Positions 977 to 58,790 of a stretch of DNA of 64,000 bases are shown here, piece by piece. The DNA comes from Candidatus Babelota bacterium (GTDB lineage: Bacteria > Babelota > Babeliae > Babelales > JABDEC01): NCBI GenBank assembly GCA_013286795.1, contig JABDFA010000001.1, positions 38,195-102,194 of the forward strand, written 5' to 3'. The notes under the pieces are model-generated. The model was not told where the DNA came from and made no database searches. It worked only from the letters and a program-made list of their open reading frames with translations. The position numbers and the translations under genes were made by a program. Positions within the stretch are counted from its first letter, which is position 1. The number at the start of each line of letters is the position of its first letter.

Positions 977-1136
977 CCGTTGTACCACTCATCCTTCGAT
1001 TCCGCGCTACGCTCTACACTCAGGATGACTGAATAAGAAATAAAATGTCCCGGTCTGAGCGAAGTCGAAGCATCGGGACGAGTAGATCTAGGTAATTTTC
1101 TTAGCGCTCGTGGTGAGCCTGTCGAACCATACGAGC
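977..1136. repeat. GC-rich composite palindromic repeat (rearranged modules of the CCGTTCG...CGAACGG element family)
   Basis: A GC-rich island sits between convergent genes in AT-rich DNA. It has two hairpins, GTCCCG-GTCTGAGCGAAGTCGAAGCA-TCGGGAC and GCTCGT-GGTGAGCCTGTCGAACCAT-ACGAGC. The modules CCTTCGAT..ACTCAGG and GTGGTGAG..TCGAACCAT recur in the 56089-56204 copy, and TCTGAGCGA..GTCGAAG recurs in the 42119 and 51149 copies. Confidence 0.6.
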
Positions 1137-1167
1137 TAATAAAGCTTTTCGTGATATTTTGTGCCTC

Positions 1168-1827
1168 TTACAAGATAATACATTCATGCTTTCTTATAGG
1201 ACGACTCAAAATTTTCCTGATAGTTGGATTTTCTGTAAGATCAATTGGTCTTTTACCTTTTTGGTCTTGCAAAATTGGATTCGCACCAAATCTAAGTAAT
1301 ATTTTAATTATATCAGGATGAACATTTTTTTCTGCTGCCCGATGCAACAATGTGACACCATATTCATTAGAATAATTGATATCAATACCTTTTAATAATA
1401 ACAATGATATTATTTTTTTAAAATTTTCCTTTGTTTCATCATTTATAAAATCAAATTCTTGTTCTTTATCTTCTTTTTCTTCTCTTTCTCCAAATATAGA
1501 AGGATATTTTCCTAAATTTGACATAGTATAACCTAAAGCACAATCACCAAAGCTATCAACTATACGGACATTGGCTCCATTATCAATTAATAATTTAACT
1601 ATTTTATAATTTAAATTTTTACAAGCCATCATTAAAGCTGTGTGTCTATGATTATTTTCATCTATCATAGGAAAATCAACATTGTATCCTGATTCTATTT
1701 GTTTTTTAACTTCAGAAAAATCATTATGCTCCGCCGCTTTAAATAATTCGCTTCCATATGTGCTTTGATAACAAAAAATAAATAAAAATATATAAATATA
1801 TTTTTTCTTTAAAATCTTATTAAACAT
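1168..1827 (-). CDS. Secreted ankyrin-repeat protein ending in a CaaX box (CIIL)
   Basis: The N-terminal leader is MFNKILKKKYIYIFLFIFCYQSTYG. ANK repeats include 'TALMMACKNLNYKIVKLLIDNGANV' and 'TLLHRAAEKNVHPDIIKILLRFGANP'. The C-terminus is 'RKHECIIL*'. Confidence 0.85.
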   Translation of the reverse strand: MFNKILKKKYIYIFLFIFCYQSTYGSELFKAAEHNDFSEVKKQIESGYNVDFPMIDENNHRHTALMMACKNLNYKIVKLLIDNGANVRIVDSFGDCALGYTMSNLGKYPSIFGEREEKEDKEQEFDFINDETKENFKKIISLLLLKGIDINYSNEYGVTLLHRAAEKNVHPDIIKILLRFGANPILQDQKGKRPIDLTENPTIRKILSRPIRKHECIIL

Positions 1828-2047
1828 TTATCTCCTTTTATTAAACAAATTTTTATATTTTAAACATTGCAAAGTTTAAATGTTTTTAAAAATAACTTCT
1901 ATAATTTTTAAATTTTTTTTTCAAAAATATCAAGGCTCTCAGAATATATATATTTACATTCATTACATGTCATAGTTATGAAAGTGGTTTTATAAGTACA
2001 AAAGCGATATAATTGGGGTACTGGAAATATAAATTTACAAAGATATT

Positions 2048-2719
2048 ATGACAAAAAAACCAATAGAGAATATCTATATTTATAGAACTATATATGAAAA
2101 TGTAATTGCAGTTATATTTTTTTTAGCACTTACTTTTGCGACCTTGAGTATTATTAAAGAAAAGTATGTCTTTTGTAACAAATTAATTATTATAAAACAT
2201 CTATTTTTTTTAACATTAGCTTTTGTTGGATTTGTATATTCATTATACAACTTTTTCTATAAATTTTTAAAAAGAAAAAGCCCAATCTTATTGCTAACTG
2301 CATGTTCTTTAACATATGAACATAACGATATTATAAAGAAAAGTAGGTTTACAGGACAAACGCAGGATGGTCCTGCATTTTTCAACCCATTTATTCAAGA
2401 ATCAATTTTATGGACCGATATAGAAAGTATAACAATTGAAAAATATAAACGAGTACCTGGTAGATATTCTGGAAGTCTTTATTTTTGTATTAATAAGAAA
2501 AAAAATACTGAATCTATTTTAATATCGCTAAAATCAGTTGATTTACCATTGTATTATTTGTGCAAGTTTTTTAAAGAATATAAACCAATAAAAATATATC
2601 CTAATAGCTTTCTTATAAAGATTAAATCATCTCGTTATTATACATATTATTATTCATGGCGTTATTTATTTTGGCTGGCATTAGCAATATGTTATTGTAT
2701 TTATAAACTAAAATATTAA
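2048..2719 (+). CDS. Hypothetical membrane protein
   Basis: Long ORF with several hydrophobic segments (e.g. VIAVIFFLALTFATLSII, LFFLTLAFVGFVYSLY, YLFWLALAICYCIY). No recognisable motif. Confidence 0.5.
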   Translation: MTKKPIENIYIYRTIYENVIAVIFFLALTFATLSIIKEKYVFCNKLIIIKHLFFLTLAFVGFVYSLYNFFYKFLKRKSPILLLTACSLTYEHNDIIKKSRFTGQTQDGPAFFNPFIQESILWTDIESITIEKYKRVPGRYSGSLYFCINKKKNTESILISLKSVDLPLYYLCKFFKEYKPIKIYPNSFLIKIKSSRYYTYYYSWRYLFWLALAICYCIYKLKY

Positions 2720-2735
2720 TTTTAAAAAAATAATT

Positions 2736-3089
2736 TTATATTTTTCTTTCAAATGGACGAGGATCAAAAAATAGTTCTACTTTTGAAATAAGATGATTTT
2801 TAAAATCCATTAAAACTGCTGTTCTAACATTTCCAATAGGCGCTGGACAATCCAAATCATAAATTAAAATTACCTGATCTTTTGAACCAATTACTGTGCG
2901 TATATTAAGTTTTTCAAAAACAGTCATGAAATATTTTATACCATTAACAACAGCTTTTTTTCCACTCATGTTGGTTAATGGTCCCATATACTCTACATTA
3001 GAGTCTAAGTACTTTTCTGCTTCTGCTAAATTTCTATTATTTATTGCTTCATAATAAGCTTTTGCAGAAATTATATTTTTTTCTGTCAT
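2736..3089 (-). CDS. SnoaL/NTF2-like small protein
   Basis: 117 aa. The N-terminus 'AKAYYEAINNRNLAEAEKYLDSNVEY' is typical of SnoaL-like/NTF2 fold proteins. It is transcribed divergently from the TetR gene. Confidence 0.55.
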   Translation of the reverse strand: MTEKNIISAKAYYEAINNRNLAEAEKYLDSNVEYMGPLTNMSGKKAVVNGIKYFMTVFEKLNIRTVIGSKDQVILIYDLDCPAPIGNVRTAVLMDFKNHLISKVELFFDPRPFERKI

Positions 3090-56458: not shown

Positions 56459-58333
56459 CTACTTGTCTGAAATATCAGTATCGATTGGGCCACTTTCTGA
56501 TTTGTTTTCAGTAGTTGAACCAGGTTCTGCTTGTTTATAAAGTATTTCAGCAATTTTGTGTGATGCTTTTAAAAGTTCATCTGTAGATTTTTCTAATTCT
56601 TGAGAATTATTTGCATGTTCCGCTAAAACTTTCTTAGAATTTTCAAGAGCCTCTTGCGCTGTCTTAACATCAGCCTCAGGAAGTTTATCTTTATTTTCAT
56701 TGATAGTTTTTTCAATTTCTAGAATTAGACCATCAAGTTTGTTGCGCTTTTCTACAGTTTCTTTTGTTTTGAGGTCCTCAGCTTCATGCTCTTTAGCATC
56801 CTTGACCATTTGCTCGATTTCTTTTTCTGTCAAACCACTGCTACTTGTAATTGTAATGCGTTGTTCTTTATTGGTACCTTTGTCTAAGGCTGTTACATTT
56901 AATATTCCATTTGCGTCTATATCAAATGAAACTTCAATTTGAGGACGGCCACGTGGAGCTGCAGGAATTCCTTCTAGCCTAAATTGCCCCAAGAATTTAT
57001 TATCTTTAGCCATAGGTCTTTCACCTTGACAAACTCTTATATCCACAGAAGTTTGATTATCTTCTGCTGTAGAGAAGATTTGAGATTTTTTGGTTGGAAT
57101 TGTTGTATTTCTTTCAATAAGTTTTGTAAAAACGCCACCCATTGTTTCTATGCCAAGAGAAAGAGGAGTTACATCTAAAAGAAGTACATCAGTTACTTCT
57201 CCTGCAAGTACACCACCTTGAATTGCTGCGCCTAAGGAAACTACTTCATCAGGATTTACAGATCTATTTGGTTCTTTGCCAAAAAACTCTTTTACTAGAG
57301 ATTGTACTTTTGGAATACGTGTTGAACCTCCAACTAAAATAACTTCATCTATTTGATCTTTGGAAAGTTTTGCATCCTGCATAGCTTGCTTGCAAGGCTC
57401 TAGAAGTCGTCTGAAGATATCAGAGCATAATGATTCTAATTTTGCTCGTGATAATTTTATATTGATATGCTTCGGCCCAGAAGCGTCTGCTGTGATGTAT
57501 GGTAAATTGATTTCAGTTTCATGCAAGGTTGAAAGTTCTATCTTAGCTTTTTCTGCAGCCTCTCTTAATCTTTGTATGGCCATTTTATCTTTTTGAAGAT
57601 CAATGCCTTGATCTTTTTTGAACTCTTCAATTAGATAATCCATAATTTTTTGATCAACGTCATCACCGCCAAGATAAGTATCCCCACTTGTTGATTTTAC
57701 TTCTATTACCCCGTCATGAATATCTAAAATAGATATATCAAATGTTCCGCCACCAAAATCAAAGACGGCCACAATGCCATTTTTCTTTTTATCTACACCA
57801 TAAGCAAGAGCTGCTGCTGTGGGCTCGTTTATAATGCGCTTTACTTCAAGGCCTGCAATTTTGCCTGCATCTTTTGTTGCTTGTCTTTGCGCATCATTGA
57901 AATAAGCTGGAACAGTTATTACAGCTTCTGTTACCTTTTCGCCGATATAATCTTCGGCATCTTGTTTAAGTTTTGAAAGTACGGCAGCTGCAATTTCTTG
58001 TGGCGTATATTCTTCACCTAAGATTGAAAAAGCTACATCGCCATTAGATTTCTTTACAACTTTATAAGGCATTTTTTTTGCTTCTTTTTCTATGTCATCA
58101 TATTTTTTGCCTATAAATCTTTTGGCTGAATAGATAGTATTTTCCGGATTAGTGACCGCTTGTCTCTTTGCTAGAACGCCTACTAACCTTTTGCCATCTT
58201 TTGTAAAGGCTACTACTGAAGGGGTTATGTTTGAACCTTCTTTGGTAGGTATTACTTTAGCTGTACCACCCTCCATGAAGGAAACTACTGAATTTGTGGT
58301 CCCTAGATCTATACCTATTATTTTTTTCGCCAT
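56459..58333 (-). CDS. dnaK: Chaperone DnaK (Hsp70)
   Basis: '[13 protein letters not shown]', 'DLGGGTFD' (here [11 protein letters not shown]), '[14 protein letters not shown]' and a full-length 624-aa Hsp70 architecture are present. Confidence 0.97.
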
Positions 58334-58385
58334 GAAAATCTCCTTGAAATAATTATAAAGTTAAATTTTATAAAAACATGTTTAA

Positions 58386-58414
58386 ATTATAAGTAAACTC
58401 TTATACCTTGTCAA
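58386..58414 (-). promoter_or_regulatory. Sigma70-type promoter of dnaK
   Basis: On the minus strand, TTGACA (58414-58409), a 17-nt spacer, then TATAAT (58391-58386). AAGGAG lies 7 nt before the ATG at 58333. Confidence 0.65.
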
Positions 58415-58431
58415 TAACATACTAAAAAATG

Positions 58432-58450
58432 TTGAGTCTGGTATACTAAG
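58432..58450. promoter_or_regulatory. HAIR-like imperfect inverted repeat (possible HspR site)
   Basis: TTGAGT-CTGGTAT-ACTAAG is compared with the remembered HAIR consensus CTTGAGT-N7-ACTCAAG. One half is good and the other is degenerate. It lies about 18 nt upstream of the -35. Confidence 0.3.
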
Positions 58451-58499
58451 ATTATTTTATAAATATATTTAAATATCTGTCGATATAATTTAGAAATAA

Positions 58500-58790
58500 A
58501 CTAATGCATTGTCGCATAACACTAGAGCGACCAGATCTGGGCAATGCTTCACCTGTAAAATAAAGTGATTCTTGTCGCATAACCCATAGGGGTAAATCCA
58601 GGTCAATGGTCGGCCCTGCCCGGTGAAGCTCCAGGCTTCGCTCGTTGAGCTACGCCTGGCAGGCAGGATAAACTCCGCATTGGGCGAAGCCCGGGTCTCC
58701 GGCTCCCCACGGCGGCCATTTTATTAGGGAAGGGTAATAGGGATGGCCTTGGGGTCGCCTTCGTTCCTTAGGAGAATTGCATAAAAAAGG
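58500..58790. repeat. GC-rich structured block upstream of the dnaK promoter (repeat-derived or an unknown ncRNA)
   Basis: A direct duplication starts with TTGTCGCATAAC at 58509 and 58572. The nested hairpins are CCTGCC..CCAGGC..GCCTGG..GGCAGG and GGCCAT..ATGGCC. No ORF is present. It shares blocks with 56377-56458. Confidence 0.5.

Follow-up and report, generated by a model that had tools for sequence, protein, structure and literature searches.

We analyzed a 64-kb stretch of DNA (hereafter, the window) from a metagenome-assembled genome (MAG) of Dependentiae (TM6/Babeliales), in which a sequence-only reading had picked out six GC-rich islands as a family of palindromic elements. The window is densely coding, contains numerous ankyrin genes, and has a GC content of 28.8%. 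A scan for 40-nt spans with at least 55% GC recovered all six islands where that reading had placed them; they are called E1 to E6 in window order (Table 1). E1 and E3 lie between convergent genes: E1 is flanked by the 3' ends of a GT10 gene (115-957, + strand) and an ankyrin gene (1168-1827, - strand), and E3 sits 36 nt past the stop codon of a gene encoding a DOT1-like methyltransferase (51348-52142, - strand), a type of protein common in Dependentiae/Babeliales (148 homologs at E <= 1e-10). E5 begins 4 nt past the stop codon of dnaK, ahead of the dnaK terminator. E2 and E4 precede genes, the former being found between a GT2-like gene (42434-43708, - strand) and the true N-terminus of the gene at 41224-42118, and the latter upstream of, or within the annotated 5' end of, an ankyrin gene (54909-56264, - strand). 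These gene contexts agree with the sequence-only reading, except that its description of the products downstream of E2 and E4 as secreted is weaker than it appeared: one is an ankyrin protein and the other a signal-peptide protein. As argued below, the islands are probably copies of a selfish, non-autonomous hairpin repeat working like the repetitive extragenic palindromic (REP) elements, the REP doublets forming hairpins (REPINs), and the bacterial interspersed mosaic elements (BIMEs).

The hairpin unit and its copies in the window

E2, E3, and E4 share the ends CCGTTCG...CTCAGGGCGAACGG. The terminal 14-mer has seven matches in the window within 3 mismatches, against 0.31 expected by chance. 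Six of these are element ends (five exact, plus the left end of E4 with 3 mismatches), and the seventh, also with 3 mismatches, is at 62229, outside the elements. The terminal 7-mer occurs 8 times (~1 expected). The terminal inverted repeats of 14 to 18 nt that had been proposed for these islands are found in E2 and E3, but in E4 only 7 nt are perfect (11/14 matching), and only 7 nt of the termini are common to the subfamilies. The arms of E2 and E3 are nearly identical, as had been claimed (93% and 94%), and their AT-rich centers differ in length. Each of these two elements folds as one long hairpin (-100 kcal/mol and z = -15.3 against shuffles for E2, z = -10.1 for E3). E4 folds with a z score of -6.05, and neither E1 nor E6 folds as a single hairpin. 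Matches of a hidden Markov model (HMM) of the arm were confined in the window to the family places of E1 to E5.

The canonical unit has a length of ~70 nt and consists of two hairpins. The first (H1), CCGTTCG-TGG-T-GAGCTTGTCGA-A-CCA-TGAACGG, is followed by a short spacer and by the second (H2), an inverted H1 whose inner stem is CCC/GGG and whose end is CGAACGG. Conservation is concentrated in the 13-base loop T-GAGCYTGTCGA-A (also given as TGAGCYTGTCGAA), while the three adjoining pairs vary yet stay complementary. More than 10 types of inner pairs are used, including CCC/GGG, GGC/GCC, TGC/GCA, TGG/CCA, TCC/GGA, CAC/GTG, and GTC/GAC. The anatomy of the unit was studied across genomes, using 173 doublet copies from other genomes beside those of the window. 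All three inner pairs were complementary in 269 of 311 distinct cores, compared with 82 in shuffles. An alignment of 113 sequences revealed 149 double-change cells (53.7 ± 6.9 expected) and a stem covariation score of 0.549 versus 0.172, a value reached by none of 500 shuffles (slid controls, <= 0.177). The family is therefore one whose hairpin is maintained as a structure. The inner stems of the two arms differ in most doublets; an arm therefore pairs better within itself than with the other arm.

Two inverted units closed by CCGTTCG/CGAACGG make up the doublets of 65 to 205 nt, represented by E2, E3, and E4, whereas single units closed by their own short stems (GCTCGT/ACGAGC in E5) make up E1 and E5. 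The loops of E2, E3, and E4 hold nested small hairpins or whole cores, resulting in mosaics. To compare these copies with others of the same lineage, we used contigs of a related strain (L163, L164, L167, L168, L169, and L170, from JGI 3300020829 and Logan SRR8433449), whose flanking genes are 92 to 95% identical to those of the window, and one contig of a more distant relative (L165, with a DnaK 84% identical to that of the window). The Dependentiae DNA compared amounted to ~138 kb in all. E1c contains the exact consensus core GTGGTGAGCCTGTCGAACCAT at 1110-1130 (arm-HMM match at 1108-1128) and is 97% identical to L170 2337-2370. Modules like E1a and E1b recur in the same order at another locus (L167 8076-8142, 82% identity). 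The family core of E5, CCTTCGACAGGCT..CAGGACGAGC, is at 56400-56454. Beyond its doublet, E2 continues into a 60-nt AT-rich spacer followed by the fragment CACGAACGG, which had been taken as a possible further remnant. Alone, this fragment is not significant (arm HMM, E = 27), but fragment and spacer recur beside another E2-type copy in L168 (42255-42393 aligns with L168 9066-9214 at 83%), and the fragment is thus part of a longer repeat unit. E3 likewise has an AT-rich extension, to ~51351, which it has in common with a paralog in an unrelated context (L169 5428-5626 versus 51351-51149, 86%).

E6 is the weakest inclusion in the family. E6-left can be aligned with E5 in reverse complement, nested hairpin included, and the 8-mer CTGCCCGG is found in the ~138 kb only in E5, E6, and L167 8205, which points to a probable E5-type module. 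The arm HMM has no match in E6, and a BLAST search with E6 returned its ortholog alone. The sole match of E6-right is its ortholog in L163 (~93%). This part does not fold better than shuffles (z = -0.7) and has no Rfam match at E <= 10. A protein-coding reading of E6 was rejected, since its open reading frames (ORFs) are not conserved between strains. The claim that the remaining loci carry the same modules was thus confirmed in part: E1 and E5 have family cores, E6-left is a probable member, and E6-right is unique, so that we count five islands and half of the sixth as the family.

Several other features surround E6. The dnaK promoter is a perfect TTGACA-17-TATAAT (58414-58386, - strand). Near it, upstream of dnaK, the motif TTGTCGCATAA occurs at 58509-58520 and 58572-58583 and is kept in L163 and L165 (~8310); it may be an operator for heat-shock control, distinct from the controlling inverted repeat of chaperone expression (CIRCE). 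Divergent from dnaK is a small Cys-rich ORF with a signal peptide (58879-59115, + strand; 78 aa), with counterparts of 76 to 77 aa at the same place in L163 and L165. In L165, the place corresponding to E6, between dnaK and the small Cys-rich ORF, is taken by a different GC-rich hairpin (8150-8250, z = -3.3).

Table 1. Islands, component modules, and associated features in the window
Feature	Coordinates	Strand	Description
E1	977-1136	.	Composite of three single-arm hairpin modules (E1a+E1b+E1c)
E1a	990-1027	core sense on -	CATCC-TTCGA..CTCAGG-ATG
E1b	1047-1079		GTCCCGG-TCTGAGCGAAGTCGAAGCAT-CGGGAC
E1c	1106-1136		GCTCGT-GGTGAGCCTGTCGAACCAT-ACGAGC
E2	42119-42323	.	205-nt inverted doublet; 18-nt perfect termini; nested cores in each arm; AT-rich center
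E2 AT-rich extension	42324-42393	.	Terminates in fragment CACGAACGG at 42382-42390
E3	51149-51311	.	163-nt inverted doublet of the E2 subfamily; 17-nt terminal inverted repeats
E4	56089-56204	+	116-nt doublet, H1 (TGG type) plus H2 (CCC type); small hairpin nested in each loop
E5	56392-56454	-	Single-arm module GCTCGT-CCTG^AGCCTGTCGAAGGAT-ACGAGC; 32-nt hairpin nested at ^ (56413-56444)
dnaK intrinsic terminator	56355-56376	-	Canonical hairpin and T-run located downstream of E5; listed for context and not part of the family
E6-left	58603-58672	+	Probable E5-type module, degenerate, with nested hairpin and further insertion
E6-right	58684-58765	.	GC-rich stretch in the divergent intergenic region, upstream of the dnaK promoter

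Turnover in the lineage and spread across bacteria

The window and the related strain (~92 to 95% identical) differ at five element sites. At the E5 site, the related strain (L163 and L164) has the module without the nested 32-nt hairpin. An un-nested paralog of E5 is present in L170, and a paralog with a similar hairpin nested at the same site in L167. The shorter form matches both the family consensus and the un-nested L170 paralog, which indicates that the state of the window is a derived insertion. At the E4 site, a 1.44-kb segment (54907-56349) carrying an ankyrin/RING-like gene and E4 is absent from the related strain, and the junction of this indel is bounded by the short direct repeat TTGTTTGCA. 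The E2 site is occupied in the related strain by a different composite, of 253 nt, made of E1a-like, E1b-like, and E5-like modules. The GH3 gene of the related strain (L167) contains a 72-nt family unit in frame, adding the peptide FPIPVTLSEARSAKSNGYSMYLST (585 versus 562 aa). E6-left is rearranged by indels, and E6-right is ~93% conserved. As for an empty site of E3, the records of the related strain contain no close ortholog of the DOT1-like gene. A metagenome scan with the E2/E3 arm as query gave four more E2/E3-type arms on three contigs of the related strain, among them solo arms and a copy that shares the AT-rich extension and CCGTTCG fragment of 42324-42393. Within the Dependentiae lineage, the paralogs of the family are 86 to 98% identical. 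The more distant relative, L165, has no family core in 20 kb; there the terminator directly follows dnaK, and the position of this terminator is conserved in both L163 and L165. These comparisons bear out the proposal of a multicopy, non-autonomous family that is mobile or recombinogenic. The family is currently gaining and losing copies in this Dependentiae lineage.

The elements also affect how genes are read. Homologs of the gene downstream of E2 have ~290 to 305 aa, with a signal peptide starting just before DKADLVIF, whereas the public annotation gives 383 aa, from an upstream ATG through E2. Between E2 and the conserved portion of the gene, no ATG is present. A gene of ~295 aa is thus annotated as one of 383 aa because the call reads through E2. 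Where elements occupy the 5' ends of the 41224 gene, the ankyrin gene, and purD, they do not close the ORFs; in the case of purD, a family unit of the related strain (L169 5686-5850) separates an upstream ATG from ILLVGNGGREHA, the conserved start of purD, and the frame remains open. Elsewhere, the 30 copies that could be classified were found in convergent (15) or co-directional (15) regions and never in divergent ones. Relative to the mRNA, the orientations of the 67 copies at 150 nt or less from a stop codon divide 34:33, a ratio that cannot decide on a role as RNA, since both senses of the hairpin are present whichever way a doublet points. In convergent regions, an apparent strand bias of 12:1 was dismissed, because the convergent configuration is symmetric and the well-defined measure is the 34:33 ratio.

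Copies of the family occur in the related strain and in many phyla, so the sequences are not unique to the window. We found 34 family loci in IMG/VR and at least 120 in GTDB genomes, in searches that required both element ends, as well as 38 plasmids. The hosts among the matches listed include Sphingomonadaceae, Burkholderiales, Methylococcaceae, Lysobacteraceae, Moraxella, Chloroflexota (complete chromosomes included), Fibrobacteres, and Methylomirabilis, and the GC content of the hosts of these cross-genome copies ranges from 43% to ~70%. Genes of the GC-rich genomes were called with our own GC3-based caller. In a Moraxella osloensis plasmid, the copy is between a sensor kinase gene and narL. 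Many of the IMG/VR loci (L002-L042) share one gene set resembling a prophage or gene transfer agent, with the element at a fixed place; these matches reflect a single cluster conserved in GC-rich hosts, not a multitude of independent phages. Tandem arrays were also seen: 52-nt doublets with an identical 18-nt spacer and a 70-nt period (L019 5490-5681), three copies with a period of ~101 nt (L084 1810-2084), and, next to a doublet, a 25-nt tandem repeat that begins with CCGTTCG (L020 6200-6300).

No known family accounts for these sequences. Rfam 15 gave 0 matches at the gathering score in the window and nothing relevant at E <= 5, and on 15 loci with canonical copies it matched only an unrelated tRNA and a signal recognition particle RNA. 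ARAGORN found nothing, and six-frame peptides of the unit had no match in Pfam or NCBIfam. The translated consensus unit gives the recurrent peptides PFVVSLSNH, PFDKLRANG, VRPELVEG, and LRQAQGER, and the peptides that the sequence-only reading had named from other genomes are exact translations of this unit. Literature searches for DNA and peptide strings of the unit returned primers and unrelated matches only, and the literature searched on Dependentiae genomes makes no mention of such repeats. The type of element is familiar, but its invariant loop across phyla, its self-nesting, and its activity in Dependentiae are undescribed in the literature searched.

Movement of the hairpin and competing explanations

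Dispersal and turnover of the family are shown by these data. For its mode of mobilization we rely on analogy with REP/RAYT (REP-associated tyrosine transposase) and other HUH systems. Movement would take place at the DNA level: the hairpin would probably form in single-stranded DNA and be recognized through its loop by a trans-acting enzyme, the best analogy for which is a nuclease of the HUH/Y1 (RAYT-like) kind. Recombination among the copies may play a part as well. Target-site duplications of 3 nt or more were absent from all 117 copies, and 2-nt matches were as frequent as in the control (2 versus 2). A single exception is a TA-flanked composite in Crenothrix. Nested insertions fall in hairpin loops, and copies were centered in longer, copy-specific palindromes in 10 of 150 cases (0 to 1 in controls). 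General insertion into pre-existing hairpins was rejected, as the adjacent flanks are not complementary (3.49 versus 3.26 of 12) and no more than ~10% of copies are nested in longer palindromes.

Several observations weigh against a REP-like selfish repeat. No mobilizing gene was found: the 30 window ORFs scanned (not every ORF) have no transposase domain, in line with what had been claimed for the window. Nor was a transposase found among the called genes of three overlapping contigs (L001, L163, and L167) or between two arms 2.7 kb apart in L168. ORF clustering around 120 genome copies revealed no recurrent neighbor gene, and the genes shared in IMG/VR reflect prophage-like context only. The ~138 kb of Dependentiae DNA has no RAYT, and 160 other loci have one pseudogene only. 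This gene, the one homolog recovered with E. coli RayT as query (Crenothrix sp. D3, L092 4437-5102), is interrupted, precisely at the HUH motif, by a ~127-nt element, TAGC...GCTA, that is flanked by TA and carries a family doublet. It is flanked by GTAG-type REPs of other sequence, and a second family doublet is just downstream. On plasmids of Methylomonas and Chloroflexota, the RAYT genes have no family cores at their flanks, and the GTAG/CGTC tag of classical REPs is absent from the flank consensus, the ends being CCGTTCG/CGAACGG or GCTCGT/ACGAGC. Moreover, insertion junctions are precise at one polymorphic site only (E5), and the indels between strains could in part be due to deletion or recombination rather than to transposition. 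An RNA-level function of the elements is also possible.

Such a function is the most substantial alternative for the family as a whole. The hairpins could be RNA motifs under selection, either protecting the 3' untranslated region (UTR) from 3' exonucleases or binding a factor via the invariant loop. In E. coli, REPs stabilize upstream mRNA. The stem covaries around a fixed loop, copies are found 5 to 150 nt past stop codons with 0 of 30 in divergent promoter regions, and E5 is between the dnaK stop codon and its terminator. However, purifying selection that removes insertions from promoters and genes would lead just as well to this 3' placement. The family has no Rfam entry, copies are also seen ahead of genes, within ORFs at their 5' ends, and, in GH3, in frame, and their presence at the same genes differs between near-identical strains. 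A role as terminators, put forward by the sequence-only reading, did not hold: a scan for intrinsic terminators reported none of E1 to E6, the elements lack T-tails, and the real terminators are separate simple hairpins, such as that at 56376-56355 right after E5. We regard selected RNA motifs as unlikely, and effects on transcripts (3' UTR hairpins, altered N-termini) would be by-products. For E6-right, the question is different: it could be a lineage-specific small RNA or a regulatory site of the divergent region between dnaK and the small Cys-rich ORF, and no repeat at all. It is unique in all our data yet is well conserved between strains amid indel-rich intergenic DNA, and L165 has a different GC-rich hairpin at the same position. 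On the other side stand its unremarkable fold, the lack of an Rfam match, its location upstream of the dnaK promoter, and the existence of two orthologs only. This leaves such an RNA or site a tentative possibility.

Two further explanations are less probable still. [quoted passage not shown] Terminal inverted repeats of 7 to 18 nt, sizes of 65 to 205 nt, the AT-rich, length-variable centers of E2 and E3, and the TA-flanked TAGC...GCTA element at the HUH motif of the Crenothrix RAYT gene are consistent with this. Nevertheless, 2-nt flank matches do not exceed the control, solo arms and single hairpins exist alone, only 7 nt of the termini are common to subfamilies, no transposase was found between or near the copies examined, and conservation resides in the loop of a covarying hairpin rather than in the termini. 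With no target-site duplication beyond chance in 117 copies and no parent IS found at the loci examined, the MITE label that had been given to the family fails, and we consider this origin quite improbable. Finally, GC-rich reads of co-occurring bacteria might have been mis-assembled into an AT-rich MAG, or the islands might be parts of a known gene for a noncoding RNA (ncRNA) or a protein. The same sequences do occur in GC-rich bacteria, and the Logan contig L001 ends inside E4, but contigs are expected to break at repeats. An independent Logan assembly has identical E5 and E6, orthologous copies have AT-rich Dependentiae flanks on both sides in another strain and other samples, and paralogs within the lineage are 86 to 98% identical. 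There is no match in Rfam, Pfam, or NCBIfam and no tRNA. Both readings are hardly credible.

Neighboring genes and place among known repeats

Other genes were noticed in the window. At 3181-4505, a gene for a TetR-family regulator is directly upstream of a cyclodipeptide synthase (CDPS) gene (Pfam E = 1.5e-30), which is unusual in a bacterium with a reduced genome and an intracellular life. A protein of the erythromycin esterase family is encoded at 16192-17502 (Pfam E = 2.9e-118), followed by two phosphoribosyltransferase-type genes on the opposite strand. The window also has a large cluster of paralogous glycosyltransferase-like genes (19060-39600), with 300-nt internal repeats that are 72 to 77% identical, some of them in tandem at a spacing of 937 nt.

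The REPs, REPINs, and BIMEs of Proteobacteria are mobilized by RAYT, an HUH Y1 transposase. Our family resembles them in being made of short imperfect palindromes that occur singly, as inverted doublets, and as mosaics, in many copies (E2 to E4 plus 173 doublets elsewhere, with >300 distinct cores), mostly just 3' of genes and rarely in promoters, without target-site duplication, and with conservation of the hairpin but not of the stem sequence. A GTAG/CGTC tag defines two large REP superfamilies (PMC3733652). The family described here differs in lacking this tag, and the sole RAYT beside a copy is its victim and is accompanied by other REPs. It also has a loop common to many phyla, while a REP class is usually restricted to one species or genus, and its units nest in each other's loops and have copies inside coding regions. 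In its behavior in this host, the family is like the Rickettsia palindromic elements (RPEs), which can insert in frame in protein genes (PMC10969869). Both are palindromes of ~50 to 200 nt in a reduced, AT-rich, obligate intracellular host, with no known transposase and with insertions in frame and at gene ends. In this comparison, which was by description and not by sequence, RPEs differ in being confined to Rickettsia and in not being GC-rich islands shared with free-living phyla. Bacterial MITEs (e.g., Correia, ERIC, Nezha, and QMITE1/2 of Coxiella) are likewise small and non-autonomous, with terminal inverted repeats, strong folds of their transcripts, and overlap with ORFs. A short REP-like form of QMITE2 of Coxiella, also compared by description rather than sequence, is found in Alphaproteobacteria too (PMC5896051). 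Unlike those MITEs, our family has no target-site duplications, no parent IS was found at the loci examined, and single hairpins occur alone. The GC clusters of yeast mitochondria are GC-rich palindromic islands in a very AT-rich genome, some of them inside genes; as elements of a eukaryotic organelle that are not known to be related in sequence, they are an analogy only.

Conservation of the loop from Sphingomonas and Methylococcales to Chloroflexota and Dependentiae, together with compensatory changes in the stem, implies a shared and undescribed recognition mechanism. More speculatively, the invariant 13-nt loop on its covarying stem might be the recognition or nick site of a trans-acting enzyme or of a universal host factor that propagates one hairpin element across phyla, with plasmids among its carriers. 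It might favor the apices of existing hairpins as insertion points, accounting for the nested, "Russian-doll" mosaics, and might work even in the reduced genomes of intracellular Dependentiae, where the element remodels protein N-termini and inserts in frame. This would be a widespread class of mobile hairpins distinct from both RAYT/GTAG REPs and DDE MITEs. Identifying the recognition partner of the loop would extend knowledge on the spread of REP-like DNA.

Family units yield recurrent spurious peptides and extend real genes, and a curated model of the family would cut much of this annotation noise and explain contig breaks. For the biology of Dependentiae, these GC-rich islands persist and turn over in a genome of 29% GC, where they alter gene starts and can add peptide segments to enzymes, a parallel, in another phylum, to the RPEs of Rickettsia.

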